Shown: positions 1 through 55,467 of the stretch, one piece after another | How the letters are laid out: each line of letters starts with the position of its first letter | How positions within the stretch are numbered: position 1 is the stretch's first letter | Origin: Marsupella aquatica | Taxonomy: Eukaryota > Plantae > Marchantiophyta | DNA: 64,000 bases | Direction: 5' to 3' | NCBI GenBank assembly: GCA_973895155.1 | Contig: OZ316899.1 | Coordinates: forward strand, 15,279,974 to 15,343,973 | Program-made: the position numbers and the translations under genes | Notes under the pieces: generated by a model | Told to the model about the DNA's origin: nothing | The model's database searches: none | Seen by the model: the letters and a program-made list of their open reading frames with translations, nothing else

Positions 1-1322
1 TAGTATGTAAAGAAAATAATAGAGCCGCATCAATCACCCAACCTTTATTATCTATAAGGTGAGAGTCAACATGGCCGGAACAAGGTCCTTACGGGGAGAA
101 CCTCAGTAAGCCAAGGGTATCCAATGTGACCTACAAAACCCAAAAAGGACAAAACAAACAATTGAAGAAAACTAGTCTTCTTCACATAGATGCTACCTTG
201 TAAGCATCGGAGTTGTAATCAAACTCTGTGTTGTAATCGGAAGATGCAATGTGATCCTCTACCCAATAGATGTGGTTCTCTCTATCAATCCAATAGGCCT
301 TCTCCTCTTTGAGTCTCTTGCGCTTGGAGGGGGCCGTGAGCTGATTCTTCTCGGTTTGGTCAGGAGCTTTGGCGGATTTATGAGATTCAAAAAGCACAGT
401 AGAAGGAGTTTGTGGCATGATGGAGGATGAGCCCACTGACGGCGCACAGGAACTATCATTCTTGGCACAGGGTGTGAGCCGGATGATTTCTGTGGCTCAG
501 GGTGTGGTATATGTCTTGGAGGAGAAACATCCTTGAGTGGGTCATCGGTTTTCGGATTGTAACACTACACCTCCAACTTGGGTATGACTACCATGCGAGG
601 AAACAGGAAAAAAAATGCTCGTAACAGGATTTTATTTGCTGTAAGAAGGTTTTTTTTGGCAAAATGGGCCCTTTTTCTCTCATAACAAGGTTTAGATGTC
701 AACCCGCTAGTTATAACTTGCCTCGCTAGCCAAAAATGGCCGAGCAGTTTGGTTGGATTTATCAGAGAAGGTGCTGTAAGCCAGCACAATTCAGGCAAAA
801 ATTACTAACGGTCTCGAGTTCTACTTTTCATTTCCAACTAGGGTTTAGGGTTTGGGCAATCATACAAAGACCACCCCACTACAAACATGATATTTCACCT
901 TATGAGGGGAAAATAACCTCGCCATTCATAGTCTGATACAATCACACCTCATTCAATAATGTAATATGATTCAGGCATCCTATTTCGTATGCACAAGGAA
1001 AAACAACAAGGGTGTTTCTCTGAATAACCACCATTTGTTCAAATAATACACCATAAATGAACTGTTTTAAAAATGAAGGCTAGCGACCTCGCTAGCAAAA
1101 AAACAACCAACATATGGTATTTTTGTATATGCTTGAAAAGAACATTCCTTTATTAATGGAAATATCTATGCTCACAACTTAGAAACAAAATATTCTACTC
1201 CTTATGGTCATGATATCATGGTCAAAATATCTCACCCTCCGAGAAATCTAAATTAATTAAAACAAAATCCAACTTACTTCTCACTTAAAAACAAAACTCT
1301 TTCCAAAGAGGACCTGTCCATC

Positions 1323-4300: not shown

Positions 4301-5064
4301 CGGACCTTGAAAACAGACCAGTGGTCGCGTGGCTTCAGATTAGCAGATGTGGTGACCAATCTTGTCCATGGATATTCATCATTATCACGGTCCATGTCTA
4401 GAAGCCCTTGCCCTTGACCAAATCTAGATTCCACCGGAGGAAGCTCATAGACCTTGTCTCCATTGTAACTTGTGGGAAGCCAGTCAACTTGGAAATCAAC
4501 CCATGCAACATCTCTTCTGAATCTAGCAAGCTCACTGGCCCCAGTAATCTTCAAGAATGCTTCAAATGCACCAATTCTGTAGACTTTGGTCAATCTATCA
4601 GAACCCACAGCCTTAGGTTCAACCACCTCCTCCTTCAAATTGTCCACCACAATTGTTGACCCCATCACCGACACCTCATCATTAATTCCTATAGACTCTA
4701 GAGGGTCCAGGTCCACAAAAACCCGTTCATGAATCATCTTAGAATTCTGTCCAAGGAAAGGGATCCCTGGAACATCTGCAAATGACTCAGGATCTTCATC
4801 CTTTCCGGAAACAAGCTCAACAATATCTCCAGACTCGACCTCCCAAACTCTTCCTCCATCAAGACTTCTTGGAATGAATTCATCCTTTCGAGCACCATGA
4901 ACAGAAACAAGGAAAAATAACTTTGAGATGTAGTCACCATTTGTGATACCAAATCTCGTCAAGAGGAATGACTCAGTCACCGGGGTGATCTTCCTCATGG
5001 AAGACACCTCCAAGTTAACAACATCACCATTGCTCCTTTGCTAGAATATGACCACCAAAGCCAT
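1323..5064 (-). pseudogene. MULE transposase, disrupted: WRKY-GCM1-like Zn domain, DDE core, Cys-rich domain, C-terminal SWIM finger
   Basis: ORF pieces 4123-5013, 3947-4300, 3156-4106, 2781-3125, 2501-2872, 1664-2488, 1323-1667. Motifs KVRCIGVIQC..C, CRFC, GFHDHP (GCM/WRKY-like); WVSFD, FMAD, (C/D)xxH=DAFH, AESVH (DDE); CSC..CKH (SWIM). Intron about 2897-3020. Several frameshifts and stops. Confidence 0.85.
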
Positions 5065-5209
5065 CGAATTGAGATGGAGAAACATTACCAAAGGTAGTGG
5101 TATAGAAGATATGTAAGAAAGTCCAAAACGACATCTAACGGGATTAAATGTGAACGTTGAATAAACGACAAAATGTCCAACGGATACATTAAATCAAGGA
5201 GATGTAATA

Positions 5210-5901
5210 TAGCTAGCGATGTCGCTAGCTAAAACCTCTTAATTTTGATTAACCACTATACATGTCATATTCTATATAGAGAGATCATTTAGAGACTATT
5301 TAGAGACCATTTAGGGACCTATAGGGTACGATATAAAGGAATATTCTGTCAAGCCCTTCATTTTGGGGAAAAGACAAAGGAAATATAGAAGATTAGTTTT
5401 AAAGACTACTTTTTGTCAAACTTCACAAACCAAAACCTTCAACTCAGAAAGAATGTATTGCCAGCGATCTCGCCTGCAAAAATCCAGACGGTTCTAGAGG
5501 ATCCATTGAGTCAATGACTAATACATAAATTTGTCAAATAAACCCTAGTTATCAGGTCAGCGATGTCGCTAGCAAAAATCACCAATATTCATCTTATCTC
5601 TTTGATGTAGTAAAGGTCAATATCCCTAATATTTTGTTGTCTTATTCAATACCCTAGTTAAGCTAGCGATCTCGCTACCCATAATGGATGACCAAGAAAC
5701 AACGACTGAAAATATATTTTCCATCTAACATCTTTAATGTTTATACTTTCTTTAGACAAATGTTGGTTTGGGGAAAGGCATTTAGAGTCCCTTAAAATTA
5801 AACAAGAATCAGAAACGCTTAAAATTTAGGGTTTACGTTCTTTTGTATTAATATATTACCGTTGAAAATCTGATGTCCATTTGGATAGCGATCTCCCTAG
5901 C
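5210..5901. promoter_or_regulatory. Cluster of five GCTAGCGAnnTCGCTAGC palindromes in the divergent intergenic region
   Basis: Copies at 5212, 5460, 5556, 5662, 5884. Further copies at 1079, 2977, 9412, 10655. The sequence is seen directly; a regulatory role is inferred. Confidence 0.7.
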
Positions 5902-6297
5902 TAAAATCTCAAACTGTAATGACCCGGAAATATATGGGTATGGTTTACTCATAAGTCTTTCCTAACGGAAACCCAATGGTAAAATAGAAGGTTGATCAAC
6001 GTTAAAATTGATAGTTTCCCGTTAACAACCTCTAAAGGGAACGTCACATGGGGGTTAATGCTGAATATTATGGTTATTCTAGTTGCTCAGCGTATTCATG
6101 ACGTTCCAACTTCAACCGATGCTATTTAAAAGAGACTTGCATTTTTTTATTGCCATCTGTGAGGGACGTTGGATTATTCCCTGTCAATGTCAGATACGCA
6201 GTTCACAGTATGTGGATTACTTAGGATTATCCCTCTAATCCAACTTTGGATTCCCAGCTCGGTCCTTTGCTAATCTCGGTTGTCGTCCTCCGCTTTA

Positions 6298-6357
6298 CTT
6301 TGGATACTCTCTCGAATGAGACTTTGGATACTCCCTCTAATCTGACTTTGGATACCA
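6298..6357 (+). repeat. 24-bp tandem repeat (~2.5 copies) upstream of the accessory gene
   Basis: CTTTGGATACTCTCTCGAATGAGA / CTTTGGATACTCCCTCTAATCTGA / CTTTGGATACC. Confidence 0.8.
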
Positions 6358-6426
6358 ATTAGAAGTCACCGTACTCGCTGCAACACTTCGTTCGTGTGTT
6401 ACTCCCTTCCATTTCTTTATCAGCCG

Positions 6427-9400
6427 ATGGCAAATTTTGCATCACCAGAGTCTGTCTCTTCTCAAGCTTCACAGTCTGCAGCTTCTCAGTGTCGAGAGAC
6501 AAGGTCTTCGACTACCAACAAGGCACTAGCTTTGGGTTTGAAGACACCTCGTCAAAGGAAACTTGTTGATCCAGTGGAGATTTTGCCACCACCGATGGAG
6601 TCTTCTAAGTCGGAACCGTTCTCCGTGGTGATCAACCGTCACCTCTACCACTTTGGGCCAAACAAATTTGGGTATCCCCTTGTTCCCCCTCGAATTCCAC
6701 TGTGTAGGATGCGAAACATGCAGCTTGTCAGGTCGCTGCAGACTGATTCCAATGCAATCGAAACGCTCAAGAATGAGTTTCGAGCTCAGGGTTACATTGA
6801 GGACGCGCCCAGGTTTTACGTTCAGATGACGAACAAGAATGGTGAGGTTCAGTTCATCAATGACACTATTCAAATGGGTTGGGATCCGATATGGGCGTTG
6901 CAGAACAAAGATTTTGAGAGAGAGTGCGATTCTCATCCAGACTTTGCTGTATTGAAGGACAAAATGTTTCACGTTTTTGATGGTAATCATCGTCTGTACT
7001 CGTGGAATCTGCTGGCCATCGAGAACCCACATGATATCAAATATCATCCTCGTGTTGTCACCAAGATTTTCAAAGGGGAGAAAGACACGTTTGTGCAGAT
7101 TGAATCTATGCATGCCCTGAACCGGTGAGCATCGAATCTGTTCTGATTGATTCAATGCTGTCTGTCACTTCACATTTCAGGTTTTCTTATCTCTGATTTG
7201 TACTCGAAACATCTTTGATACTTTTGTTCATTGGCAGGCTCACTCAATGCCACATTGAGAATTCATGGGTCCTGGAAGCAGATCATGTCCAGAAGATACT
7301 GAACACGGACTTGTCGGTCTACAAGGATTTGATTGATGCAGACAATTTCAAGTTGTTCCAACAAAAGATGCAAAATGTGAAGAAACCCTCTTGGTATTCA
7401 AAAAATATGACCCTGGATGCTTGTATTTACATTCTATCAACTACAAATATAGCTTCCCAGACTGCAGATTTGCAGAATAAGTTTTCTCTCAAGGAGGATC
7501 TTGGAGAACCTTTGTCAAAAGCTGCGAAGGACACTGCTCTACGAGAAATGATGAAGGAGCAACTATCTGATTGGAATGTTAAAGTTCCAAAAATTGCTCC
7601 TCTTCTCAATCCCGAATTCAGAAATGTGTGGAGATGCACAACTATTGTGAGAAAGAACGGAAGGAAGCACAAAGGACTAATGATAAAGGGAGAGGCAATG
7701 TCTCATGTGGTCTTGATCGAGCGAGGATTTTTACCGGGGTAACATCTCTCAGCCCATTGCTTTGTTGCAATCTACTTGAAGCGCAGTGCAAGCCCGAGCT
7801 ACGGAAGCAATATTTTCATCCTGGGCAATTCTCAGATAGTGAGACTAAACTCTGGCTGCATAGGTGGGCTACGTGGGAACAAGTAGAGTCGATTGCTAGA
7901 TCTCCTTTGTCCGAAGCTGTTTCAGAAATGATTCTAAGTGTCCCTGAATCTCAAGTTCTTTCAGCCTCAGAGAAGAACAAGGCATCACTTGTTCTTGATA
8001 TTAGTGATGAGTTTGAGGACTTTTTGCAGCAAGTTAAATCCAGGTTTTTCAAGAGCATTTGGGCCCCAAAAGTAGGGGAAAAGATAGATATTGTCGCATT
8101 TCGGAGAAGGGCAAAAAGATACGTATACTGATTTTTTGTTGACCGGGAGGTGGCCAATCGAGCATTCTGGTGGTGTTACCCCGCGTGTTTCTCCCAGTGG
8201 GCCAAATACGTGACTAACGATTTAGGAAATCAAAAATGCGGCGACTACTCAATGTACCCTTGTGAGGACGTTGAGCCACTCCGGAAGATGAGTGAATGGG
8301 AGGTTTTACACTGTCCATGGTACTTAGATTCAGAGAATTGGTCTCTAACATTTGATGGGTCAGAGAAGCTTGCTTTGCAGAAGATAAATCGTGGGTTAGT
8401 CCCAGAGTTTTATATTTCTGAATAAAAAATGCCCAACCTCGAAGTAGTGCAGGCCGGGTGTGAGGCGATGGAGCAGGCTTGCCTTGGTGTTGCACCAATT
8501 GTTGATAGAAGCCGTTCCAAAAATTTGAAGAAGGACGTTGTGAAGGAGGTGTCGAAAGAGACCTCTCAGGTTTCCGGCAGGAGAAGTAAGTGTGCTCATC
8601 GTCCTAACTCTCAATCGGCTTCTAATGTTTAGCCCTTTCTTTGCAAATTCTCATTTTCTGAGGTTTTTGGTTCTCTTTTGTTTTCCAGAAAAGAGAAGGT
8701 CGACTGGTTCAGAGAGTGTCCAGACCGTGCAGAATCGTGGGCGACAGGATCCCATTGAACCTGAATCTCTGGATTTTGAGATTGTGATGAAACCGATTGG
8801 TGATAAGCTTAAGAAGAAGAGAAAAGTTCAAGTGCTCTCAGATTCAGAAGATGAGGAAGGGTCGATCAGTGAGGGTGTGATGAGGATATGTGGACTTCAA
8901 CTGGATGGGAATCGACATTTCTTTGCCAAGAGTAATTTACGTTTCACAACAGACTCAATTGCTTTGAAGAAAGTTTGACCTTCGTGGATGGGGGAGGGGG
9001 ATCGCTGGCTGAGTGAGATTTTGAGTTCTTCAGAACATCCGAGTCCCCTAAGAATCAATGGCAAGCCTTACACCAGTACCAGTGCCCATCTTGGGTTCAT
9101 TGCTCTTCCTACAGGACTAAGGCCTCGTGTTACTGATGTGAAGGTGCCAGAATGGAAAGTTTGGATGGAGAAACTTCCTTATTACTTCTTTGGAGTCATG
9201 AGACCCATGCTGTCCGATGATGGATATGTGGCTGTTCTCCATAGTGGAGAATTTAACCACATGAAGCAGATTTTTGCTGCCATTGAGCAGAAGAATAAAT
9301 TCAAACATCTTCGCCAGTACCACGTTTTGTTGAGTAGCCCAATGTGGATGCCAGACATCGATGTTGAGGTGAGATGTCAAGAGTTTTGGGTTTAAATTAT

Positions 9401-10453
9401 ATGTGTTTTTTGCCAGCGAGGTCGCTGGCCTTCACAGCCTCAATATTTGACATATTTTTTGCTTTTCCAAGTTTGCAATCTCAGTCTGGATGTGTTTTGT
9501 CGAACTGAATTCGATGGGAAGATCCCCAAGGACCCGAAGTACATCCCCATGGCAACATCCGAGGATGCATCTCATAAGAAGTTACTCAGTCTTTGTTACC
9601 CAAAAATCAATGTCAGGACTGAGTTAGCTTTTGCAGGGTCTTGTCGATTATCTGTTGGATTCATACAGGCGGTGATGGAGCTTTTGACAAAGCCAAGAGA
9701 CATTGTGCTAGATTGGAATGTTGGAGATGGAAGTTCATTCCGAGCGGGGGAACTCTCCGGGAGGTTTGTAGTAGGGGTTGAGGATAGGGAATTTCTCCAT
9801 GATGCTGCGCAGGAGTCGTTGAAGTTGGTTCTGGATCGTCATAAGAAAATTGAAGACATCACTATCGGGATGGGTACTGAGTCATTGGAGGATGGGGATT
9901 CAGATGACAAGTTTATTCTTGCCGGATCGAGTGGTGGAAGAACGAAAGTTCCTGCTCCGGATGAGAAAGATGACCACGATGAATTTGACCTGGAGTAATG
10001 TACTTATCCTGTCTCATACCAAATCCAACTGTGTTTAGAAAGTTAAGTTCAGTTTTTTCCACCTTGAATTAATCGGCTGCTGATTTTGCTTCTTACAGTG
10101 ATTGGCGTGTAGATTGGTTCTCGGAGGAGAGATTTTGGCTCCGCAAGGAAATTGAGGGCGCTTTTCTCTTCTCGCCTGAGAAATTGTTCACTCTACCTTG
10201 TTATGCGGAGAAGTCTGCAATTGAAGCAGATGAGACTTTTGTTATGACTTGGGAAGGAAAAGGTCGGAGGTCAGATCGTGGCGCTCGGAGGAATTTGTAC
10301 AGCCTTCCTTTCATGGATGTTGAGGCGGGTCATGTGAAGAGATATGTGGACGAGTCCGCTGAGTCAACTGATAGGGAGTTTGGCAGTGAGGAAATCAGTA
10401 GTAGTAGTAGTAGGAATGATTTGGAATCAGATGAAAGTCATTCCACAAATTAG
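6427..10453 (+). pseudogene. TE accessory gene: ParB/Srx-like N-terminal domain + beta-class amino-DNA-methyltransferase-like domain (5 exons, disrupted)
   Basis: Exons about 6427-7124, 7238-8585, 8689-9368, 9471-9994, 10099-10453. Introns are GT-AG, with one acceptor decayed to CAA. ParB-like: RIPLCRM..R..D..IETLK..F..QGY..VFDGNHRL. MTase-like: HLGFIALPTG..W..RPMLSDDG..LTKPRDIVLDWNVGDGSS..GRFVVGVE. In-frame stops at 8129, 8423, 8976; frameshift near 7620. Confidence 0.75.
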
Positions 10454-11530
10454 TGTGAAGTTTGATTCTGCTTGTGTGTCCCCTGAATGGGAAGCAGCAT
10501 AATAAGCTTGATCTCTTTAGCCATTCTGGAGAACTTACTCTCAGATTCAATAAAGTAATCGAGGCAGCCAATTTTGATGAGTGGGAAATGTCTGTAACTT
10601 GAGTATAATCTTTATTGGTTATCTTGTTTTGATCAGTTTTGTGTATGATGGAAGGCTAGCGCCCTCGCTTACAACCCATGTGCATTATGAAAGTTTTGAC
10701 AAATGCTTAGTTTGGTTGTGTGAAATCCTTTCTAGGCCAGTTTGTAGGCACTAAATATGCCATTCAAAAAATGACATATCCCTCGCTAACAAAAGCTCAT
10801 GTCGCTAGCAATTTCTCCTGTTTCCTTGCATGGTACAAACCCCCCTCCAACTTCCATTTCATGTTTGTGCCAGGATTCTGAGGAGGTCCCAAGATTGTTC
10901 TGAAACATTGAACAAAATAACAGGGATCAGAAACAAATCAAAACATGACATTGTAAAAGAATATTCAGAAACTAGTGAAATTCAAAGTGGTTCTTACCTT
11001 CCAGAGTGGTAGTAGACTGAAGGAAGAGTGGGGGCGGAAGATTGGGAAGGAGTAACCTGGTCTGAAAAACTTAAAGCACCACAAGGGGAGGATGAGTTTT
11101 CTATCATTCGTTCGGGCAGAACTTGGTGTTTGTCAAGATAATAAGGAGAGGGGTCTGGGACCTGATGTATAGGAAGAGTGGGCCATTCCTTCGCGAGGGC
11201 AGAGCCTAGATAATGATGACTTGGATGCCAACGTCCCTAAACAACTTACGCGTGAAAAGACTTAATCATGGATCGTGATCACGCGGACGTTGTGGCTAAC
11301 TTGTGTGAATGAAGTTACAGTTTATTGATGTGTAATCACCTGCCTCGAGGTGGAATAGTTGGGATTGCATACCTGGAACCACATTTAACTCACAGGAGGG
11401 AAGAGTGTGATTGGACTAGCAATTTCACTGGCCTGTAGGACATCTCCGTTTCAACATGAAAGTTTTGTAGGTGTGTGAGATGATGGGTGTTTAAGTGAGG
11501 CTTTCAAGATGTGAGATTCCTTTAGTCCGT

Positions 11531-18237: not shown

Positions 18238-18255
18238 CACACACACACACACACA
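18238..18255 (+). repeat. (CA)9 microsatellite
   Basis: Direct. Confidence 0.9.
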
Positions 18256-19810: not shown

Positions 19811-20010
19811 AGAGTGGAGTTTGGGAACAAACTCTGCAAACATAAAAATATCAAATTTGGATGGCTAGTCATTGCAATAGTCCTGAACAAAGAACATTTG
19901 AAGTCAAGTCAGTCCTTGACATCAAATAACCCGTCTATCACCCTCTACATGCGTCTCATGCAAAAATCATTGTATTGCACAGGAAAGCTCAACTTATTCT
20001 TGGATAGACT

Positions 20011-26800: not shown

Positions 26801-27357
26801 AGACAGGCACGACAAAACAAGAGAATGAGTCTCTCCTAGACCAAGTCCAACTACTCAAGCAGGATGTAGACCGGCGGAGGAGACAGCGGGACGGCCGCTC
26901 CAAGTCCAACTCGAGTGGGTCTGGCAAGCGTGCCAGGCATTAGCGGCATAGCAGGTTTAGAATAGATTTAGGTTTAGTTAGGAAGGTGAGACGCTAAAGA
27001 CAAGCGCCAAAACTAGTTAGCAGCGCTGTCCTGTCTGATCGACCCCCTTTAGCATAGAATCTTAGAATAAGACACGCCATTTTTTGGCCTAACAAACAAC
27101 AAAACTTAGAATAGATTAGATTTGAGCGCGTGGCTGTTCCAGGCCATGGCTCTTAGTTAGTATTTAGTGCACCCCTTGGTAGAGGCAAGGGGGGGATTTT
27201 AGGTTTAGAACCGGGTGTCCGTAGGATGTGCGGGGAGTCCCGGCCTTAGTGAATACAATAGCGCCATGAAGTGAGGGTGCAACTAATCTCGTCGGGCGAG
27301 TACAAAGCCGGGCTCCTTTGTAGTGTACGCCTCACTACCGTTGGGCCTGTTCATTCA
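23843..27357 (+). mobile_element. 3'-truncated second copy of the ORF-containing LTR-like unit (family of 43175-47144)
   Basis: Collinear with the revcomp of 43660-47144. TATAAAAG at ~24206. Frameshifted ORF 24888-26943 (HKNILHPKHA.YLKTQGFE; C-terminal coiled coil). Confidence 0.75.
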
Positions 27358-27359
27358 TA

Positions 27360-28818: not shown

Positions 28819-30060
28819 TGTTAGAAAACCGTCAGCTCCAGACTAGACAACAATGCAGAACATGAGAGCACTCAATCTCACACTACACCAACAAGAGAAA
28901 CTCCTAAAGGATCCATAGATCATGAGAAAGTACATGTGAAGAATGAGGGAGAGAATGTTCTCCCTCCAACCTATAACCCCCCAAGGAGGACAAAGATGTG
29001 TGGGCCTAAATTAGTGGATCTTATCCTAAACTAACCAAGGGTCAATTAACCCTAGTAAGGCCAAACTAACTAAAGCCGGGAACTTAAGATTCAGTTCCTA
29101 TTTACCAATCCTCACCTTGAATCCAGTTCACACAATGAGTCAGGTGATATATAGTATGTAACTATGTAACATATCTATATAGTCTCCGGTTTGGCCCTAA
29201 CATTAATCATATCCACACAATGACTAAAGCTATTGGTAGGTAAAACTTTAGTAAGCATGTATGTTGCATTCTCCTCTAAAGCCACCTTCTCTAGAAACAT
29301 TTGCTTTGTCTCAATCACCTCACGGATGAAGTGTTAATGGATGTCAATGTGCTTTGTCCTAGCATGAAACATAGGGTTCTTAGCTATAGATGCAAAGCAC
29401 TTTGACTGTCACATAACAGCACCGGTGTCTCAGGTAAAACCCAAATCAATCACCAATCTTTGTAGTCGGATCAACTCCTTGGTTGCCTTGCAGGCAGTCA
29501 TGTACTCAACCTTAGTTAGTAGACAACGCAACACAGGATTGAGTTGCCAACTTCCAACTGATACAACCTCCACCTAGCATAAACACATAGCCTGTAGTAG
29601 ATTTCTTGTTATCCAAGTTACCAGCATAATCTGAGTCTACAAAACCTCTCAACTCTAATGTAGAGTTTGCTTTATCGTCAAATAGAATCCCACAATCTAA
29701 GGTACCTTTTAAATATCTAAGGTAACTTTTAAATATCAATATGCTTTGTCCTAGCATGGAACACAAGGTTCTTAGCCATATGTAAAGCACTTTGACTGTC
29801 ACACAACAACACCAATCTTCATAGCTCCTTGGATACCTCACAGGCAACCATGTACTCAACCTCAGTAGTAGACAATGCAACACACGATATAGTTGCCAAC
29901 TTCCATCTAATACACCCACCATAACCTCCACCCAACATAAACACATTGCCTATAGTGGACTTCTTGTAATCCAAGTTACCAGCATAATCTGAATCTACAA
30001 AACCTTCCTTCTCTAACATAGAGTTTTCTTTATCGTCAAATAGAATCCCACAATCTAAGG
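28819..30060 (-). mobile_element. Ty1/copia 3' portion: RT-end/RNase H (partly duplicated), PPT, 3' LTR ~28819-29107
   Basis: GFVDSDYAGNLD..KSTTGYVF..ISWK..VALST twice; HARTKHIDI; PPT-like CAAGGTGAGGAT at ~29108-29119; LTR ends TG..CTAACA on the minus strand. Confidence 0.85.
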
Positions 30061-30488
30061 GGGGGATCTCTCCATGACAGCAAATAGCAAACAGCAAACA
30101 GCAAACAACAAACAACAAAACTCATACCAGCAAATGTGCACCCAAAAAAAGACACCGAATGATAAGAAAATATTGTCACATATATTGGACCTGAAGCGGC
30201 CATTGAGTACATTTATACTAGCGCCGGGCGCTATAAGGAAAACATCCAAATAAAAACCTCTTTGAACTACCGGCTATAGTAATTGCGTCGGGCGCTACTC
30301 TAATCCGACACGTCATGGCGTTCTTATTTAGTGTCGTCGTTCTCCACGAACGGGTAAATAAAACAAGGAAAACTAAAGACCAGATCCACAACCACCACTC
30401 GACTCTGAGCCCAATTCAAAACCGCTACTTTCTGATCTATCAGTGGACTCTACTTCGTCGTCCACATACTTGGATTTTGCAATATCAT

Positions 30489-33400
30489 CTACAAAGTGAT
30501 TCTGCACAAACTTTCTATCTGAGCCTCTCCTGAGTCTAAGACCCTTACTCTCCCAAGTAATCGTCCTGACTGAATCTGCCCGTCGTGCCGCCTTTTCAGC
30601 ATAAGAGGGGAGAACAAATGGCTTCTCCGGGGTCTGTACAACATTCCTAGAGACGTTCCTTCAAAGTTGAAAACGCCTCCGAAGATTCCACTATGACCTG
30701 AGAATTTGAACTGGAGTTCTTTAGTCGAAGTTGGGAAATTGGGCAAATTTTCTAGACAAAAGGGAGTATAGGAGTTCTCTGGAAAAAAGTATACAATGAG
30801 AGAAAGAAAGCTAAAGAACATTACTCTTCTGACTCTTCACTGTCATCTCCAGATCCAAGGTCCACCACATTCTTTGACACCTCATCATCTTTAGATTGTT
30901 GAGAAGCATTGCCACCCTCATCCTCGTCTTCCGAATCAAAATTTAGAATAGCACGGAGCCTGTCCTGCTTCTTACTTCCAGGAATTTTCTTAGGAGGAGT
31001 TGGTGCAACCACTTCTTTGTTCTGTAAAAGATCGAGGAAGACCTTACCGGAAGTATCAACAAACTCTGGCCAATTTTCCAGCCCAATAACAAAGCGACCA
31101 GAATAATCTCTAGCCACAAACGTACTACCGGAACCTACTGTCAAGTCCATAACGATATCTCCAGGAAGAGTTACCAATTCCAAAATAGTTTGCATGAAAC
31201 CCACAGGCAAGCGTGAATTTCCTGCAAATTGGAGCTCAGGAGTCGGGTCATGTCGCGGCAACGATAACCCAATAATGTTAGTGACGGAAGGGCCTTCTGC
31301 ATTCGATAGTGGCCGGAACTTGGGGTCTTTTGGGACCCTTCCCTTTGTCGAAATGCGGCAAAATATATTAAGAGTAAGTGTGAATATCTGCAACACAGTT
31401 TCCCAATGAAGGCAGTATAAGAAAATAGACACATATATATTAGCGCTTGGCGCTAGTCAACCCGTCATCCTTACGAAAGATAAGTGAATTGTAGATATAG
31501 CGAATGCTAATAGTAGCGCCGGGCGCTAGTATGTGCAAGAGGAATTGTTACCTGAGTATCAGATCGGGGTCTATACATTGGTGTAGTCATGACCACATTG
31601 TGGGTTGAAATACAGTGGAAACACTTAGAATCCTGGCAAGCCGCAATCACTTCAGATACCTGATCATAGTCTCTTCTGTGTAAAATTGCAAGTAGGCCAT
31701 TGTCTGCCAGGAATGGCTCCATGGCTCGGAAGAAAGAGCTAGGAATAGTGTAATCCTGAAGGTTCCACTTGGGAACCTTCCGATCAATAAGTGTTGGTTT
31801 TAATCCAGTGGGAATGTAGATGAAACCAGCATCCACACCAAAGCCCCTCTCTTTTCTGCCACGCATTACTCCCTTCTCTCTGTCTCCCTTTCCCCAAGCC
31901 TCAACTTTAGTAACCCACATGGGCTTCATCCCCTTGTTAAATACCGAATCGTAAAATTCGTTTAAATTGGACTCCACAAAACAGTGTCTAGAACACCTTC
32001 GCTTAAAATTCTCGACATCTCTCTGGATTCCACAGGAAATAACATCTCGAGTAGATGATGCTGCTCTGTCCTCACCGGTGCCTCTCTTTTTCTTTTTCTT
32101 TGTGCTAGTTGCGTCAACAGGGACAATGGATTTGCCAGCACCATCCGGGGTCCCTTGATCCGGGGTTTGCTGAGCTCTAGTGTTTGCCTCCGATGCCTAA
32201 GGAGTTGCATCATTCTTCCCTTTGGCAGCCGGGACCTCCGTGTCGGACTTTCAACCTCCTGTTAGGCACAGAAACTTGCATGAGTCCAACCTTTCAGACT
32301 AGCGCCAGGCGCTATTAATCAAAGGAATTTCCAAATGAAACTCCCGCATAAGCAGCGCCAACAAGTAACCAAAAAGCGCTTAGACTACTCACTTTTCTTG
32401 AAGGACCTTGTGGAGTCACTTGGTGCAGCTGACTCATTCTTCGCCTTTGCTCTTGGCTTACGGCTTCGGTCAACGTGCATGAGAAGAGACTCACAATTCT
32501 TTTGTAACTCAGATGCAGATTTGTCAACATCAGACTGGAGCCCTTGCTTCATTGCAGACACATAGTTGGCATAGATCTGGGACTTTTGCAACTTCATGAA
32601 GGCATCCTTCTCAGCTTCGTCGAACGGTAAATCCCATTTGTCTGTGTCGAGGTACCACGGACAGTGAAGTCTCTCCCACTCTGACAATGAACATGGTGGA
32701 AGCTTTCCTTCCGCTGGGTACATCGAATACAGGTTGGCAAGAGCGTCTCCCTCTTTGATAGACACTCATTTCTGAAATGCAGCCGGGTATGCACACAGAG
32801 TGTCAGGAGATCTAAGCTCCATCCACATGTAAAACCGGTATAGATATCGTTTGGCTCTCTTCCGGTTCCGCTCTGTGTAATCTTCCTTGTCCGCATATTT
32901 GGAAGGCCACAAGTTGTTGAAGAATTTTGCCTTGACAAGATCCCCAAAGTTTCTGAATTCATCGAGAATGATCTTAAGCATGGCCTCCATTGACTCACAC
33001 CCAGACTTTGTGAGACGGTCAGCCGGCATCCGGTCAGAAATCTGTTTGAAGGAAGTGTGAAGCATTCCAGTTGCAATTCCCTCCACAGAATTCCAAGTAT
33101 GCCATGTATGGCACCACTGCTTCACAGGCTCGTTGACACTTGCAGGATGGAAAAACTGTTTCCTAATCTCGGGAGTGCAGTGGGGTACTAGAAGGGTGCA
33201 CCTCAATTTTGGATCCAGGTACGAAACAACAGTAAACAACCTGGCTTGATCCATTGTGCATACAACTGTGTCTGGCTTCTTCTCCCGTTTGTTCTTCTCA
33301 GTTACGGGATACATCTCAACACAGGTTCCCAAATAATCTCCAAAATCCAGATGAAGTAAAGGGGTGATCTTTGTCACTTTGATCGACCAATCTTTGGTCG

Positions 33401-34562
33401 CCTCCTTCATCATTGCCTCATGCCTCTTTGTGGTCTCCTCTTCTGACCAAGGAGCCCCTTGAGCTTTGGCTAAAGCCATATCAGACTTAAATTGATTTGA
33501 GTAAGACTTGATTTTGTCCACACACATAATGTAGATGAGGGCATCCTGTGGCATTTTATGTGTAAACCAAGACCCCTTTCTCGTCTTCTTTTGGATCGCC
33601 TCAAACTTGCCATGTTCGCGTTGTCAATGAGTGGCTTATAGTGATCAAGATCATGCGACAGAATTCGGGAAATTCTGTTTGCGTCAAGAATCCAGGAAGG
33701 CTCGACGACTGCTTGTCCAAGCCTGGATGCAATGAAAAGGAATTAGTAGCGCCGGGCGCTAGCAAAAATTGGGGAATGAACACTTTTGCAAAGCATGTTT
33801 GGTCCAAAATGAATGACATGGGTAACAATAGTTAACGAATAGAACTTATTGGTTCACGGTGTGCATTTTTGCCTCGAGCTCAACTAGCAAACCTCTGTCA
33901 CCATTGAAAATGATGCAAATCACATGAGGATGACACTTCAAGTTGTCTGGATTCTCCCTCGTGATGATTGACCAAGAGTACAATCGATGATTTCCGCCAA
34001 ACACACAAAACATTTTATCTTTCAGAATATGGAACGCTGGGTCCGCATCACACTCTTCCTCAAACTTGTCATTCTCTTCGACCCAAATTGGATCCCAAGA
34101 GTCTCGGATCTCGCTGGTGCATATCTGAGGAACCCCATCGGCATTCGCAGGCTGAACGTAGAAAGGCATCCCAATGCGCGAGTTGTACCCGGTGACCCAA
34201 AATGATTCTTTCAACTTCTCGATCGATGCACTTTCTTTCTGTAAGGTTCGAACAACCTCCATGGGGAGCAATCTACACAGAGGAATTTGAGGTGGCTCCT
34301 TATCGAATCCTCGAAAATCCTTCTCGAACGACAATGCATGCTTTGATATTACCTTGTCCATCGATAAGCCTTTGTCACTGACTTCACCCATGGAGACCTC
34401 CTTAGGGTCCATTCTCCATCTCCTTGACCTCGGGAAGGGCTATGCAGATTCAGCTTCGGAAGTTGACAGGGACGTAGTCGATCGAGTGATGCGACGGGTG
34501 TATACTGAACTAGCGAACGAAGACTGAGAGGACTCAGAATGACCACCATCAGCCTCCCCCAT
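30489..34562 (-). pseudogene. ParB/Srx-like + amino-MTase-like accessory gene, copy 2
   Basis: QIPLCRL..VFGGNHRLYSW; VDAGFIYIPTG..W..EPFLADNG; RLPVGFMQTILELVTLPGDIVMDLTVGSGST..GRFVIGLE. Intron positions match copy 1. Premature stops. Confidence 0.78.
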
Positions 34563-35710
34563 TCTCGTATCACCCAGCCAAAAGTTGCCGTGGAGAGCGA
34601 CTCGACCACCCGGCACTATCGTACGCGCCGTGCAGTTCTTGTGAAGATCACATCTCAAAATGTACGGGACCAATAAAGGACGCACATATGCACTTGACAA
34701 ACTTGTATAGTCCGAGGTCTAAGCGATTAGACGGACTAAATTATCCCCAATGAGCGATCTCAACCTCGTATTAAGACACCAATACAATGGACCCAGCCAT
34801 TCGAACAACGGTCCCAAGTACAGATGGCATTCTCCGATTGGACTTTCATCCCAGACAAAAGCAAAAAGGGTTCCGTGAACCTCAATCTACTATAATATTA
34901 CCATTGGAAAGTGATTGTTGGAACCACAACAGTGTCGGTAGTTGTGGATAGCGCCAGGCGCTATTATACAACATACCTTCAAATGTATTTGAAAAATCGT
35001 CTTCATGTAGCTACGGGAAGTACTGTCGATACTATTGTCTATAAATTTGCAAATTTTGTGTAGGTGTCGACAAGCCAACTTTAGTAGCGCTCGGCGCTAG
35101 TATTCAAATGAATCATGAAATCGGAGTCCAATGACAACAAACATGAATGCATGAACCCATTCATTCAGCGAATATTCCAATAAATTACAATAGCGCCTGG
35201 CGCTATTCAAATGCACATCAATTGAACAGAATTTGTTGAAATAAAAGTAAAAAATAACTCCGAACGGGTATGACTTGTAATTCCTTTAATTAATAGTGCC
35301 CAACACTATCAAAAACAATTTAAGGACAAGCCATGTCACAACAATGTTAAGGACACTTTGTTTCTCATAATAGCGCCAAATGCTACTAAAAACATTGACA
35401 GTAAACGAGTATTTACGACAATTTCAAAGAAATCGATCAGGTTCGCATTCAAAAATACAATGCAAACACGGGAGTAGAACCGGAAATTAAAGCTTGGTAT
35501 TCTGAATTCAAAAGCATTGACATCGATGTAAAAATGAACGGCTGTGCCATTCATGTACAAAATGTTACAGTGCACTAGAAATCCAACATACGATGAAGGA
35601 ACGGTATGCATTTTCTATCAAAAAAAAACATGTGGAAACAGATCCTATCAACCTCGATGGATCCTCCAAGTCTCTCCAGCACTTGAACGATACGCTCTGA
35701 CAACGAGAAA

Positions 35711-36135
35711 TCAGTCTTCCCACCAACTTGGCTTGTACGCATCGTAGTCGTCATTCGAGTCGCTTGATCCATACCACGCAAATTCTCGCCTGCTCGGTGA
35801 TGAGTCCCCACTCGAAGAACGATCACTCTCAGTGGATGAAGAAGGCTCGGAGAGACCCGTGCAGATAGTGTCAGCTCTCGGACGGCCGACTGAAGGGGCA
35901 ATATTCCTAGCAGGAACAGAAGTCGGGCCGCTCGGATTTGGCCGACTGGATCCTTTGCCGCGGCCTGCAAGTGGGGCATTCTTCGTCTTTGAGATGAGTT
36001 TGCCCTTCTTCGAGATTGGAACCGTCATCCTCTCGGCATTCCGCTGAGGTGGTAAGCTATTTGATGCGGGGTCTCCCGGTCGGTTTTGCTCGGGATAAGT
36101 GCCTCCTCCTTTGCCTTCCCTCGTGGAGGTGCCAT
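35711..36135 (-). other. Possible third small basic/Ser-rich ORF (frameshifted) in the element 2 intergenic region
   Basis: MAPPRGKAKEE.. frame joined to ..KKGKLISKTK..SSDSNDDYDAYKPSWWED; no recognised domain. Confidence 0.3.
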
Positions 36136-36606
36136 TGAAAGTGAGGACAAGGATGAGAACAAGAAGCGCAAACAAGAACGCGAGCGAGGACAAGAGCACG
36201 AACTAGGACGAGAATGAGAAACAAGGATGAGAAACGAGGACGAGAACAAGAACAAGAACGTGCACAAAAGTGAAGTAGAACCACTGGGCCCGAAAGCGAG
36301 AATGAGAACCACGCGCCCGAAAGATGAGCCACAACTACGACTCAGTGAAGAATGGCTCGACAATGAGGACATCGGAGGAGAACGATGAGATATAAGGAGA
36401 ATTTGCACTTGGTCCCGGGTACCCACTTCGAAGAGGACCCTCTGAGAGCACTTTCAAAGACGCTTCCTTTCTGACACATCTGGACCCGGGCGGATCGGAT
36501 TCGCAAAGATCCAGTGGAGATCTTCAAGCGTGCCAACTTAATGACTCGTACTATATCGCGTTATCATACTTTTCCTTCCATTGAATGTTTTCAAGTCCAT
36601 TGAAAT

Positions 36607-36753
36607 AGGTAGCGCCAGGTGCTATTATTAATTGCCTTTGTACTCCTCACCCAAGAATGTTCACACCCAGAGGTAGCACCAGGCGCTATTATTATTGGCA
36701 TTCGTAGTCCTCACCCAAGAGTGTTTTACACTTAGAGGTAGCGCCAGGCGCTA
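36607..36753 (+). repeat. ~64-bp tandem repeat, each unit carrying a TAGCGCCAGGCGCTA palindrome
   Basis: Palindromes at 36610, 36674, 36739 with shared flanks (TATTATT..TCCTCACCCAAGA..AGAGG). Confidence 0.85.
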
Positions 36754-36927
36754 GTAACTATGAACCCAAATCTTGCCATTGGTAAGACGACAAAACATCA
36801 TTGATGGAGTGCGTCCAAATCTATAACGACTCTATAGTGAGAATGAAACATTTACTTCTCGTACTCGAATCTCATGATAAACATATTTCATTTCGCGCGG
36901 GCAAAGGCATATCCCTCTTTTGAAGCT

Positions 36928-39900
36928 ATGGCTCAAAATATCGTTGTCACGAGGAAGGACACTCGGGATGTAATCACAATTTCCGTCCTTGACTCATCTG
37001 AATCAAAGCGTGTTTCAGAGGAATATTTGGGAGTGAGATTTGATGTCGCCAAGGAGTCTATTTTAGCGATCTCATTAGTGTCGGTTTGTTCGGGGGAGAC
37101 TCCAGTTTTCTACGATGTTGTTCATGGTCAAAGATATTGGACTCTAGAGGCTTAGAAAGAATATGAGGTTTTTGTTTTGAGAGATTTTGGGGCCTCCTGT
37201 ACTCGTCCTCCCACAGCAGCTGAACTCAATGTCATCAAACTCTCGGAAATTTCTGGAGATGATAAGCAAGCGACAACTACTCTCGGAGAGAAGATTCCAG
37301 TTTACCCATCGAGGTTAAAAAGGAGTCTAATGCGAATCGAGAAAAGATTATGCCTTTGACTGTGTACCGGCAGAGTGCAATGGATACAATCTTGAAATCC
37401 AAAGGTCATAGTGAATTGTCTCGGTTTATAAGGGGGAGTGATTTTGTTCATCATGTAGTGCCTAGTCTTCCCACATCTTACAATGGGAATGTGGTTTTTG
37501 AGTTACCCCCGGTAGACTGTGTGAACGCAAAAGGTGAACGTTTGAAAGATATGGATCGCGATAAGGATTGTTATTATTGGACTCGGATTGTGAAAACGTC
37601 TTCAAATGTTCTTTCGAAGAAAATGTGGGATTTTGGGAAAGTCCAGTGTACGGGATCGTTGCAATGTCGAAATAATGCTTGTCCGTGGTGGAAAGACAAC
37701 AAGTTTTGAAATAATGAGATGTGGGCAAGAACCCCAAAACTTTTGGGCCCATTCCGAGTTGGGGAATTGATCTCCGAAGGTGGAGTTGTTTGTCACCATT
37801 GCTCCAAACCTCCGATGTGCATTGAGGCCTGCCCTGCTCTAATGTTCTACATGTATCCATTTGCAAAAGTTGACGTTAAGTCTTTGGCCCACATGTCGCG
37901 ACTAGCTATTCATATGGGATTTCACAATCATCCCAGTCGACGGGTCTTTTCGAGGGAGGCAGAAAAGGTTGCAAGGTCTCATCTGGAGAAGGGATTCACT
38001 GCAAACCCCATGGCATCCCCAGCAGGGATAAAAAACTCTGCGACTTAGACATTGACGAATACATTTTGCAAGGCCTTTGTTGAAGAAATCTCTCTTGAAG
38101 AAGAGAAGGAAATTTGGGAGTCCCTTATGGTCGTGGCATCTCCTCAGAAGTTTGCATCCGTGTTAAGGAGTGTCCGTCAAGATTAGAAGGGGAAAGGGGA
38201 ACTGGAATTTCTTGTGAGGATGCAAAAGTGTATCCGACTGCCTTTTCTTCATAGGTTCTTGCTCCCTGGTCAAGGCTGTCGGGACGAGAGTGCTCACATC
38301 TTTAAAATGACCGTAAAAGGTGACGGGAGTGGTCTGGACCTGCTCCAAAGAATGAAACCTGGTGGGTTGTTAGAGGGTTCATGGGTAAGTTTTGACGTGA
38401 TGCATTGAAGCACGGCAGATTGGCTTACTCTTAGTGCCCATGTATATGATCATCATTACCGGGCACTTTGCACCAAATTCACTTGTGAGCTAAAGGCCAA
38501 AGATGCAAAATCTCTGGAGAGAGCCTAGCGTTTGATGCTAGAGGTTGCCGATGAAAATGGTTTACAGGATGTTACAATTCGGGGATTCATGGCGGACAAT
38601 GCTCAGGTTGGTTGGAATGCTGTTCAAAACGTGTTCTTTGACGGTGTACTCGACCCAAAGCGAGAAAGATCAGATGCCTTTCATTTTTTCCAATCTTTTC
38701 ATCGTCATTCCCGAGAAGGTGTGAAAGATGGAAAGCACAAAGAGCACAAGGAGATGTGGGATCATCTTTGGAACGCGCCAACTTTCTTGAAAGCATATCG
38801 AATCTTGAGGGAAATTGATGACTGGTGGAGGTCTGGCAATTGTCACTCAGACAAACTTTGGATGCTGCAAGGGTGGCTATCTTGGTGGGTTGTCCGATGG
38901 AGACTATGGGGGAACTTCATAAGACTGGTGAGTTATACACTGCTCTAGGATGCATGTTCCCATTAAGCGCTCGGCGCTAGTGAAGCATGTGTGAGACATA
39001 AGAGTTCCTTATCCGCAAGAGTAGCGCCGAGCGCTAATAATCCGTTTGGACTATGAGTGATGTAAGGACTACCTTTATTCTGTGTTCAACGGTACTTTAC
39101 ATGGAAATATCATCATCAGTTTATTAGCGTCTGGCGCTACTATTATTACCATTGTGTTGCCACTTTTGTGTGCAATTTCTTACATGTACTAAATCCTTGC
39201 GTGCAATGTTTCAAAGCAAGAGTGCCGAAGAAGCTGGGATGATTCCTAATTGTACTGGTTCGGAATCTAGGCATGCTGGAATGAAAGCATGGCAACAGAA
39301 AAAAGAAGGTTGGTCTGTTTGAAGGATGCAAAACGAACCAAAATAGAGCGGTTGCTCAAATTGTTGCTTATACTGCATACAAAAGGGGATTGAGCAGAGG
39401 AACTGGCCCAACTATTTTTGAGCTTGCCTTCAGATCGGCGGACCTGGCGGGGTCACCGCGTCTCTTTGAGGAAGCCACCAATCTCCTCCTCTCGAACGCT
39501 GCTGAGTTTGATTTGGAAAGAAGTGTTCCATTGAATGGTGATGTTGTAACTCGATCGGTGAAACGAAAAGGACATGCAACTGGGAACGTCTCGGCAGAAG
39601 ACTCGCACAGGCATGATACCATCCTTGTTACTTCACCAAATACAAAAGGTTTGAAAAGGAGAAACCTGCATTCCACTGATTTTGAGAAAATGCCTTCTAT
39701 GCCTTCAGCCGGTGGAATTGATGCGGTCCATAATTTGTCAGAAAGCGATGCTTCTGAGGAAGTTGTGGTCATTGACACACCTTCGCGTCGAGCAACGAGA
39801 TCCTCTGTCCCACTAGTGACCCCTGCAAGACTTGTCCAGACTGCATATTGTCATTCAGTTTCCCCAATGGAAAGTGAAGTACCTCCCGGTGCCTGGCAGT

Positions 39901-40742
39901 TGCTTCGGACCTCAAAACAGGGTACGGGTCCAGTGTGTAACGGAACCCTTGGACGGGGAGGAAGTCGTGATGAATGTCGAAATCGAGTAAAGAAGGTAGG
40001 CCTTTCAAATCCAGATGGTGTTGTTGCAATTTCCGTGAGAGAATGCAGAATGTTCAGGGGGCAACCTTATAATGATCAGATATGGTTTTGCCCCAACAAC
40101 CACTGTCACCAAAGCACAACAAGGAGAGGAGTCTCGAACATTCCCAATGTTCCTTCACATCTCCCAATTGCCAGAGGGACCAATCTTTCTGGAGCAGAGA
40201 TCCAATTTTTGAAAGAACAAGGACTTATTCTCTCCGAAGGCCGTGGAGATGAAATTGAAGCACCATTGCCTTCTGCATTACGGATTGATGTCAATATTTT
40301 CCCGGAGAGGATCAACCTAACTGACCCATCTGTGAGGTGCGCTTCAAGGAACGGGAAGAAATGCTTGCAAAGAGTGCATCTTACCCAAACACATTTGAAG
40401 AGAATTGAAGCCTCTAAAAAAGAAATCATGAGCGTCATTGGAGAGAGAGAGATCACGAGTGGAAATGCGTCGGGGAAACAGTTTTGTATCCGGACCCATG
40501 AACATGAGAGATCAGTCGCCTCTTATTGGGTTCAGATATGTTGTTTCCCATGTTGCTCCTGCGAGGATTTCTACCGTCGACATACTTATCGGAAGCCTTA
40601 CATGCCTTGCAAACATGTGTATTGGGTGTTCAAGAATGTGTTCAAACTGGATGTGCTCGATTCAACATTATGTAGCCAGCCAATTCTAACGTTGGGAGAA
40701 GTCCATTACATACTTGATAGGCAGTTGGGAACGAGAATGTAG
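36928..40742 (+). pseudogene. MULE transposase copy 2 (GCM/WRKY-like, DDE, SWIM), disrupted
   Basis: KVQCTGSLQC..C, CHHC, GFHNHP, WVSFD, FMAD, DAFH, SESRH, CSC..CKH. Intron 38928-39214 at the same position as in copy 1. Confidence 0.85.
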
Positions 40743-41029
40743 ACTGTTGCTTTATCATTGAACAACTACAATTGTAGTTTGTCTTTTCTAACGAGCAGAA
40801 GTGTGAGTTCTTAAAGTGTTGTTTTTTTGTATAATACAATACTAGCGTCGGGCGCTAGTATTGTATGACTTTGTTTTGACTTCATATTTCGTTGCAATAT
40901 ATTGGAGTCCATGTGTGAAATCGTCAAGAAATTTCCTCTGATGTTGTACAATGGTGGGACCCACCATAATATTGTCCGCACAATTATTGCATATATGGAC
41001 GCTACATACCCTGAAGAGAAGAAACTAAA

Positions 41030-41190
41030 ATGCATACAAGAAAAAAAAATACTCGTACAAGAAAACAAAAACTCATACAAGAAAACAGAAACTCGTACAA
41101 GTAAATAGATATGCTCATACGAGTAACTTGTTTACTCGTACGAGACAAAATTTTGCTTGTACGAGGCAAAATTGGCTCGTATGAGAATAT
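41030..41190. repeat. Subterminal ~21-bp repeats with CTCGTACGAG-type core
   Basis: CTCGTACAAG, CTCATACAAG, CTCATACGAG, CTCGTACGAG, CTTGTACGAG, CTCGTATGAG. Confidence 0.75.
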
Positions 41191-41234
41191 CTATTTACTA
41201 TTTGCTAGCACGGTGGTTATACCCCAATCTAAGG

Positions 41235-55110: not shown

Positions 55111-55467
55111 GGAGGTGTTTACAAAAGACAGCAAACAGGAAACAGGATTTAATAACAGAAACTGGTAACAGGAAAAAAACTGGTAACAAGAAAATGGGTG
55201 GAATTTTTTTTTGAATTTTTTTTTAAAATTTTTTTTTGAAATTGTTTTTTTGAGAAAAAAAAATTTCGGTCGACCAGATTTTTTTGCTAGCGCCCAAAGC
55301 TAGCAAAAAATGTTGCATTGTTAATTTTTTTTGGAAATAACATGTTTTAGGAGACATTTTTAAATTGTCATTTTTCCTGGTAATAGTGATTTTTTCCTGG
55401 TAACAGCATATTAAAAACAGGAAAAAAAATTCCTGTTTACCTGTTTCCTGTCTCCGTCGCTATACCC
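55111..55467. mobile_element. MITE-like non-autonomous member of the same MULE clan
   Basis: Right end revcomp GGGTATAGCGACGGAGACAGGAAACAGG; left GGAGGTGTTTACAAAAGACAGCAAACAGGAAACAGG; CTGGTAACAG repeats; central GCTAGCGCCCAAAGCTAGC. TSD only partial (CTCTCC). Confidence 0.6.

Follow-up and report, generated by a model that had tools for sequence, protein, structure and literature searches.

The stretch analysed here, 64,000 nucleotides of Marsupella aquatica DNA (Marchantiophyta; GenBank assembly GCA_973895155.1, contig OZ316899.1, positions 15,279,974 to 15,343,973 of the forward strand; hereafter the window), contains two related DNA transposons, element 1 (E1) and element 2 (E2). Each carries a transposase gene (gene A), a second gene (gene B) whose predicted product joins a ParB-like region to a methyltransferase-like domain, and a set of repeated palindromes of its own. 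The two genes are divergently oriented in both elements. The window positions of all features are collected in Table 1.

E1 and E2 fit the Mutator superfamily, for which target-site duplications of 8-11 bp are described (PMC6446971): both have exact 9-bp duplications, a DDE transposase and short degenerate inverted ends. These ends are inverted repeats of about 30 bp that outscored all 300 shuffles within each element, and those of E1 resemble those of E2. The CTCRTA-type repeats near the end of E2, partly common to E1 and E2, are likely the sites of the transposase. The E2 copy is defective, with stops and frameshifts in both the transposase gene and gene B. In four public runs, between 187 and 5,578 contigs per run cover the E2 region, a depth that gives no copy number; since so many contigs cover it, mostly at 90-99% likeness, the family is multi-copy. 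The frame interrupted by E2, which has no Pfam match, is presumably a Copia reverse transcriptase/RNase H. Its two flanks are found joined without E2 in public contigs, which may represent further copies of Copia and not alleles free of E2.

The transposase was characterised through a relative, P0005, the model of which has a predicted local distance difference test (pLDDT) score of 77. Its best Foldseek match was the ISCth4 transposase (E 2.3e-4; Z 7.8 over 215 residues), which we take to be of the IS256/Mutator type. The model also matches a GCM domain (Z 6.2, root-mean-square deviation (rmsd) 3.8, 129/157 residues; Foldseek E 0.017), and, separately, its residues 1-96 show a ubiquitin-like/DWNN/DIX fold (Z 7.6). 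FMADxA and an H are invariant in 22 of 22 transposase sequences and a CxC-xn-CxH motif is visible, the Pfam SWIM match (E 0.28) being under the cut-off. Among 21 longer homologs, most of the ten inspected stop just past WRQWG, the site of the intron. Pfam MULE did not match the transposase, its domain is not recognised by Pfam and NCBIfam, its profile had no match among PDB sequences and the third acidic residue of the DDE core was not located. The transposase core, 53% identical between E1 and E2, is the most conserved part of the elements; the gene-B domains are 27-41% identical, with 32-36% in the helical region.

Table 1. Positions of the features of E1, E2 and a short derivative (window coordinates; palindromes are given by start where several share a line).
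Feature	Position	Strand	Remarks
E1	580..10844		layout of E2 inverted; 9-bp duplication CTCCAACTT
E1 transposase gene	1323..5040	-	
E1 gene B	6424..10453	+	ParB-like, helical and methyltransferase-like
E1 palindromes, nine	1079, 2977, 5212, 5460, 5556, 5662, 5884, 9412, 10655		GCTAGCGA-nn-TCGCTAGC
E2 left target-site duplication	30051..30059	+	CAATCTAAG
E2	30060..41224		11,165-bp Mutator-like DNA transposon; 9-bp duplication, degenerate inverted ends, broken frames
E2 palindrome	30219..30233		perfect; subterminal
E2 palindrome	30283..30297		2 mismatches; consensus A at 30284 in contigs of three runs, the fourth run lacking coverage here
E2 gene B	30489..34440	-	start codon not fixed; four predicted introns; acidic tail
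Gene-B N6/N4 methyltransferase-like domain	about 32043-31028	-	
E2 palindrome	31441..31455		1 mismatch; gene-B intron 3
E2 palindrome	31514..31528		perfect; gene-B intron 3
E2 palindrome	32300..32314		perfect; gene-B intron 2
Gene-B helical region	about 33715-32388	-	includes the predicted DNA-binding part
E2 palindrome	33747..33761		perfect; gene-B intron 1
Gene-B ParB/Srx-type domain	about 34334-33852	-	predicted
Five E2 palindromes	34949..35385		intergenic cluster: 34949, 35085, 35191, 35294, 35371
Motif-free stretch	35575..36453	-	broken open frames between the two intergenic palindrome clusters
Three E2 palindromes	36610..36753		36610, 36674, 36739; in 64-bp tandem repeat upstream of transposase
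E2 transposase gene	36900..40742	+	GCM-like zinc domain, DDE core, C-terminal SWIM-like motif; intron about 38929-39212
Three E2 palindromes	38965..39139		38965, 39022, 39125; transposase intron
E2 palindrome	40843..40857		1 mismatch; subterminal, inside 33-bp perfect-armed hairpin 40834-40866
CTCRTA-type short repeats	41052..41185		subterminal, transposase-side end of E2; distinct from the palindrome
E2 right target-site duplication	41225..41233	+	CAATCTAAG
Non-autonomous derivative	55111..55467		357 bp, like a miniature inverted-repeat transposable element; family-type ends; duplication matching at 7/9 (CTCTCTCCT/CTCTCCCAT)

Element-specific palindromes in non-coding DNA

A sequence-only reading of this DNA had listed 18 copies of the palindrome TAGCGCC-n-GGCGCTA in E2, and every coordinate in that list proved exact. 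Seven copies are perfect, seven carry one mismatch and two carry two, with a single copy at three (35371) and another at four (35294). When up to two mismatches were allowed, 16 matches were found in the window, all of them within E2 (30219-40857), and 100 dinucleotide shuffles gave a mean of 0.11 and a maximum of 1. Taken alone, copy 35294 is no better than chance, as there are 10 other four-mismatch matches in the window; contigs of all four public runs carry the consensus base at 35297 and 35305 in this copy, and at 35381 in copy 35371. With its flanking positions, the E2 consensus reads TA-N-TAGCGCC-N-GGCGCTA-N-TA.

None of the 18 copies falls in the homology-based exon model, which occupies 62.5% of E2 (P about 2e-8 if copies were placed at random), and the non-coding location proposed earlier is thereby borne out; the introns were predicted from homology gaps and splice signals, one E2 donor being mutated and one acceptor unclear. 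The transposase intron and gene-B intron 3 hold the motif in E1 as well as in E2, as had been noticed. The more general statement that the copies occupy equivalent positions in the two elements is correct by region and fails intron by intron, since the motif is present in four of the five predicted introns of E2 and in two of five in E1.

At up to three mismatches, the E1 palindrome GCTAGCGA-nn-TCGCTAGC occurs nine times in the window, always in E1 (1079-10672), with a chance mean of 0.04. The two elements do differ in spacing, E1 carrying only its version with a 4-nt spacer and E2 the one with 5 nt. Absence of mixing between the motifs, also claimed, was found at one mismatch, where TAGCGA-n2 gave six matches in E1 and none in E2, and TAGCGC-n3 gave 15 in E2 and none in E1; copy 10655 of E1, with a TAGCGCC left half at E1 spacing, is a partial exception. 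Outside both elements, the 357-bp derivative bears one central degenerate palindrome at 55288 (three mismatches), which combines E1-like outer arms with E2-like spacing. Remnants of a retroelement protease and of an integrase zinc-binding region adjoin this derivative at 55545-56431.

The flanks of the E2 copies have a median identity of 0.32 against a background of 0.28, with clear exceptions in the pairs 36610/36674 and 30219/40843. Since the flanks of most copies are unrelated, the copies do not stem from one recent duplication. In sister copies, the motif is retained while the flanks vary. Across 34900-35420, where 40 of 45 family differences were listed, 36 of those 40 fall in 446 non-motif bases and none in the 45 bases of three intact motifs; the remaining four lie in two degenerate motifs, where one is at the free centre and three restore the consensus. 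On its own, this deficit of differences in the motif is of borderline significance (Poisson P 0.026, Fisher P 0.064). In sister contigs, copies 30283 and 38965 likewise come nearer to the consensus. Because the sister-copy contigs read degenerate sites nearer to the consensus, the palindrome looks to be under selection.

It is improbable, in our view, that the palindromes are host transcription-factor sites, intron RNA hairpins or neutral by-products of local duplication. Three E2 copies do lie in a 64-bp tandem repeat, and all the arrays at the related loci described below are tandem, but the flanks of most E2 copies are unrelated, and two elements of one genome differ in spacing. With full arms, a 1-nt centre is too short for a hairpin loop, and compensatory changes were not seen, 16 of 18 deviations from the consensus being C>T or G>A (five at CpG positions and 11 at the inner CC). 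As to a host factor, the approximately 53 kb of the window outside E2, host gene included, hold no copy at up to two mismatches.

Element-wide turnover of the motif, as suggested in the sequence-only reading, is supported, each element having only its own palindrome and the copies lying mostly in unrelated flanks. The ParB/KorB/Noc-like protein that the element encodes is a strong candidate for the partner of the motif. The accompanying suggestion of protein-motif co-evolution stays a hypothesis, the complete elements available with both protein and motif being two in number (E1 and E2).

A gene product with predicted ParB-like and methyltransferase-like regions

The gene-B product is predicted to carry a nucleotide-binding domain of the ParB/Srx type and, after it, a helical DNA-binding region resembling that of KorB and Noc, with the methyltransferase-like domain in addition. 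A profile of the first domain matched 475 clusters (50% identity) at E <=0.001, of which 150 were listed. Nine named homologs come from Riccia sorocarpa, Diphasiastrum complanatum and two Adiantum species, and liverworts, lycophytes and ferns all have members of the family. For a Riccia relative, P0176, a 537-residue model (pLDDT 88.5) was available, whose seven best Foldseek rows are ParB or Noc chains. In VIA comparisons, the N-domain of this model matched Caulobacter ParB with Z 9.1 and rmsd 2.3 over 99 residues, residues 18-384 matched KorB over 203/209 residues (Z 8.9, rmsd 4.3), and residues 1-380 matched Noc over 204/221 residues (Z 8.3, rmsd 4.9). A Foldseek-free search of 48,161 chains returned KorB, PadC and pNOB8 ParB as its top three (Z 8.0, 7.2 and 7.0). 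These superpositions are of whole chains (203/209 residues of KorB, 204/221 of Noc, 226/250 of pNOB8 ParB and 168/186 of Spo0J, at rmsd 3.9-4.9) and take in the putative DNA-binding part, which has a long insertion.

Since these Z values are moderate, the case for ParB rests on the recurrence of the same family and on the motifs. A G-N-H-R motif is conserved at 94/99/93/83% in 141-142 of the 150 listed homologs and a later Asn in 87/87, and both motifs are present in E1 and E2. Judged by position, the Arg of G-N-H-R and the later Asn would match the CTP residues R117 and N146 of KorB (PMC11790492).

In language-model features, the ParB-plus-helical region was nearest to clusters of DUF3723 (PF12520; 0.95-0.96, 173-185/256 shared); the Pfam DUF3723 model matched none of the gene-B family members scanned, and we treat this kinship as a lead only. 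P0176 had no match in 50,697 phage records (tblastn, E 0.01), and a scan of viral contigs found no relative. A homolog from Diphasiastrum complanatum, P0002 (O6H91_08G053900, with seven annotated isoforms), is fused behind a Myb domain and may have been domesticated or may reflect a fusion in the gene model. Its Myb domain was considered as a reader of the palindrome and dropped, as it matches neither E1 nor E2.

The methyltransferase-like domain is matched by PF01555 (E 7e-8 in E2 and 5e-4 in E1), and its profile matches DpnA and CcrM (E 3e-10 to 2e-9). The S-adenosylmethionine (SAM)-binding motif is retained and the domain order is that of the beta class. The canonical catalytic motif is D/N/S-P-P-Y/F; gene B has a degenerate YIPT in E2 and ALPT in E1, and four relatives have DLPT, DFPT or DMPS. 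From these residues, the domain is probably inactive.

We regard as very improbable that gene B encodes an active N4-cytosine/N6-adenine methyltransferase, targeted to the palindromes or marking them as self (the E2 core is CCNGG). Sites of 15-21 bp far exceed the usual targets of methyltransferases. The matches to PF01555, DpnA and CcrM and the kept SAM-binding motif speak for such an enzyme, as do the N4-methylcytosine enzymes that exist in Marchantia (10.1101/2021.02.12.428880) and the phage fusions of ParB with a methyltransferase (PMC12704722), but the catalytic motifs of gene B given above stand against TSPPY in MpDN4MT1 (10.1101/2021.02.12.428880).

A degraded remnant on the minus strand at 17200-21650 includes methyltransferase-like DNA (17212-17489) that is 77-80% identical to gene B of E1 and E2. 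This remnant is without an intact palindrome and contains a NIF/FCP1 phosphatase-like frame (18999-19538); the Adiantum gene-B homolog P0117 likewise ends in a NIF domain. Another frame of the remnant resembles what we take to be an Ulp1-type protease.

Proposed function of gene B and its alternatives

The palindromes are probably bound by the gene-B product, which we favour over the transposase as the binder because a separate CTCRTA repeat lies at the ends and because the transposase core is more conserved. That such binding serves anti-silencing or activation of the element, as analogy would have it, we judge to be a little short of an even call. Loading, spreading and anti-silencing are proposed here because a ParB-like protein together with private palindromes fits the patterns of ParB and of VANC. 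Dimers of ParB are loaded at 16-bp palindromes, where CTP closes them into clamps that slide; VirB counters silencing in this way (PMC10770331). The switch in specificity from ParB to Noc amounts to four residues (PMC7383237). In VANDAL elements, VANC binds family-specific motifs located in introns, between genes and in terminal DNA, and it clears the elements of methylation along their length (PMC5735166).

By analogy with ParB, KorB, Noc and VirB, a dimer of the gene-B product would read the two half-sites of the palindrome. The clamp would then bind a nucleotide, most likely CTP, close and slide, and sliding from the E2 sites, which are spaced at 0.1-2.2 kb, could cover the whole 11-kb element. 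Spreading would likely keep the element free of host silencing, as VANC does in VANDAL, and the methyltransferase-like domain, its catalytic motif lost, may serve as a module that binds DNA or protein. When the DNA-binding region drifts, sites that match it would be kept or regained element-wide, and each subfamily would come to activate only itself. Candidate specificity segments picked by eye (DWSIKVTKITPLL in E2 versus DWNVKVPKIAPLL in E1, and TMDQAR in E2 versus GLDRAR in E1) are guesses. With the motifs masked, the ratio of observed to expected CpG was 1.04 in the E2 intergenic region, 0.73 in E2, 0.55 in E1, 0.29-0.58 in the non-genic flanks and 0.83 in the host gene region; the undepleted CpG of the E2 intergenic region is weak support for protection from silencing, and this support is absent for E1.

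In its widest and more tentative form, the proposal would be that seedless plants harbour a widespread transposon family running a nuclear ParB-parS system, in which the sliding clamp of each subfamily, switched by CTP and joined to a dead methyltransferase, loads at private palindromes, spreads over the 10-kb element and protects it from silencing, clamp and site change specificity together, and the DUF3723 proteins of Starships are perhaps alike. We hold this to be possible rather than probable.

A clamp loaded on the palindromes could instead have a mechanical or repressive role, by bridging or compacting the ends for transposition or by long-range self-repression of the divergent promoters in the manner of KorB. 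This we consider unlikely. The same evidence of fold and motifs would apply to it, the ends share only about 30 bp of degenerate inverted repeat, and the 357-bp derivative keeps a central palindrome, which is compatible with a role in mobility, although this site, with its three mismatches, may be a remnant. From palindromic OB sites, KorB exerts repression over a distance (PMC11790492), and 8 of the 18 E2 sites lie between the two genes; sites in four of five introns, however, suit coverage of the chromatin of the whole element better than pairing of the ends.

Rather unlikely, too, is that the transposase recognises the palindromes through its GCM-like zinc domain and activates its element or assembles there, with gene B having another role. 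The match of the P0005 model to a GCM domain would fit this, and in Arabidopsis a Mutator transposase is enough for sequence-specific hypomethylation and activation, although binding was at the terminal repeats (10.64898/2026.08.24.746577). Several palindrome-bearing loci are without a detectable gene B, most of them too short to show one. In E1 and E2, the end repeat differs from the palindrome and is partly common to both elements, whereas the palindrome is internal and element-specific; and it is the transposase core that is the most conserved part, against the much more variable helical region of gene B.

Returning to a gene-B clamp that protects the elements, several observations weigh against it. 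The P0176 model had no Foldseek match at E 0.001 (best 0.23), Z values of 7-9 are near the level reached by unrelated models, and neither Pfam nor NCBIfam makes a ParB call for gene B. The fold model is that of the Riccia relative, to which the helical region of E2 is 24% identical over 263 residues (E 6e-18). The transposase also carries a predicted DNA-binding domain, the GCM-like one, and the comparison across 34900-35420 drew on 40 of the 45 differences, as stated above. Over E1 as a whole, the CpG ratio does not exceed the values of neighbouring repeats, and richness in CpG is in any case common among promoters. Lastly, 80 metagenome loci with related transposases were fetched and the 55 of at least 1.9 kb were scored for repeated palindromes: only 4/55 reached a score of at least 5, the arrays lie in tandem repeats (64-103 bp where detected), and gene B is clear in just one (L075) of the 14 loci that extend 4.5 kb or more upstream, several of the 14 being near-duplicates and old. 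A methyltransferase remnant was found in L076.

Of the four loci that reached this score, L003 has TCTCGG-nn-CCGAGA, L011 has TTTCGG-nn-CCGAAA and L075 a decayed ATGTGC-n4-GCACAT. Two long perfect palindromes each were picked by eye in L009 and L045. Each motif is restricted to its own locus, except one that is common to L003 and L045. Because the copies sit in tandem repeats, the shuffle values overstate these palindromes. In L075, gene B is divergent from the transposase and a different palindrome array lies between the two genes, which speaks for the proposed clamp. A CATATG array in L074 (3520-3850 and 4346-4420), the fourth of the scoring loci, was discounted as a motif, being a microsatellite of 9-bp period upstream of the transposase; gene B was not detected in this locus. 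In a quick transposase tree of 69 rows, 60 of them from loci or elements with at least 150 core profile positions, E1 and E2 fall in one clade with P0003-P0007 (support 100); L045, L074 and L075 dropped out, and the labelled rows are too few for co-evolution.

Neighbouring DNA and relation to known systems

The motif-free stretch of E2 between the two intergenic clusters is a possible third gene or 5' exon; its frames have no family or Pfam match and no counterpart in E1, and sister contigs carry an indel at 36067 within it. Elsewhere in the window, two related, oppositely oriented repeats (21800-27400 and 43600-50800), with pieces 70-90% identical and coiled-coil open frames, are probably retroelement-like. 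An intron-bearing gene at 12000-15100, with a CpG-rich 5' region and an Arg/Glu-rich coiled-coil product, is a probable host gene, the product of which we take to be ARGLU1-like.

ParB clamps with sequence specificity have been described in bacteria, plasmids and phages. The systems ParB-parS, Noc-NBS, KorB-OB and VirB-virS (PMC10770331, PMC11790492, PMC7383237) are like gene B in the predicted ParB/Srx domain plus helical region, in the GxxR-type and Asn motifs, in having multiple palindromes of similar length on a mobile element, and in paralogs with different palindromes. The KorB OB core TTTAGCGGCTAAA has TAGC..GCTA arms like those of the palindromes described here, which may be coincidence (PMC11790492). 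Unlike these clamps, gene B is nuclear, has spliceosomal introns and belongs to a plant transposon, with large insertions and a fused methyltransferase-like domain; no ParA was seen in its company and no canonical C-terminal dimer domain was identified in it. Its G-N-H-R stands in place of the G-E-R-R of the clamps, and hydrolysis may differ.

Fusions of ParB with an N6_N4 methyltransferase in phages and prophages join the same two domains in one protein (PMC12704722, PMC4738411) and are a plausible source of gene B, in which, however, the catalytic motif is degenerate. The terms 'plant' and 'transpos' are absent from the main text of PMC12704722, and the eukaryotic ParB-fold protein named in this survey is sulfiredoxin, which has no DNA-binding domain. 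In the literature searched, which did not extend to the supplements of PMC4738411 and PMC12704722, there was no account of ParB-methyltransferase fusions in plant transposons or of these palindromes. DN4MT1 of Marchantia is another amino-methyltransferase fold of prokaryote type in a seedless plant, but it keeps TSPPY and is an active host enzyme, unlike gene B, and 'ParB' is absent from the main text that describes it (10.1101/2021.02.12.428880). DUF3723 is a conserved auxiliary gene of the fungal Starships, and gene B is likewise accessory in a large eukaryotic mobile element, although Starships use a tyrosine recombinase, unlike E1 and E2 (10.1101/2021.12.13.472469).

The VANDAL/VANC system belongs to Arabidopsis Mutator-like elements (MULEs) without terminal inverted repeats, and resembles E1 and E2 in its Mutator-type nature, short degenerate ends and accessory genes, as well as in its family-specific short motifs, which are non-coding, partly in tandem repeats and different between related families (PMC5735166). 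The VANC motifs are non-palindromes of 8-9 nt (YAGTATTAY, AGTTGTCC), whereas those described here are spaced palindromes of 14-21 bp; anti-silencing was shown for VANC and is proposed here, and the accessory protein here is ParB-like and methyltransferase-like (PMC5735166).

If the proposal is true, the transposon clamp and its matching palindromes would have arrived independently at what VANC achieves, and sliding would offer a mechanism by which few sites affect a whole element. The role of DUF3723 in Starships would gain a hypothesis open to test, and orthogonal DNA-loading tools for use in plants might be drawn from the family. With at least 475 clusters, and each element showing its own candidate site, the family may serve as a natural panel for the study of how a protein and its multiple sites change.

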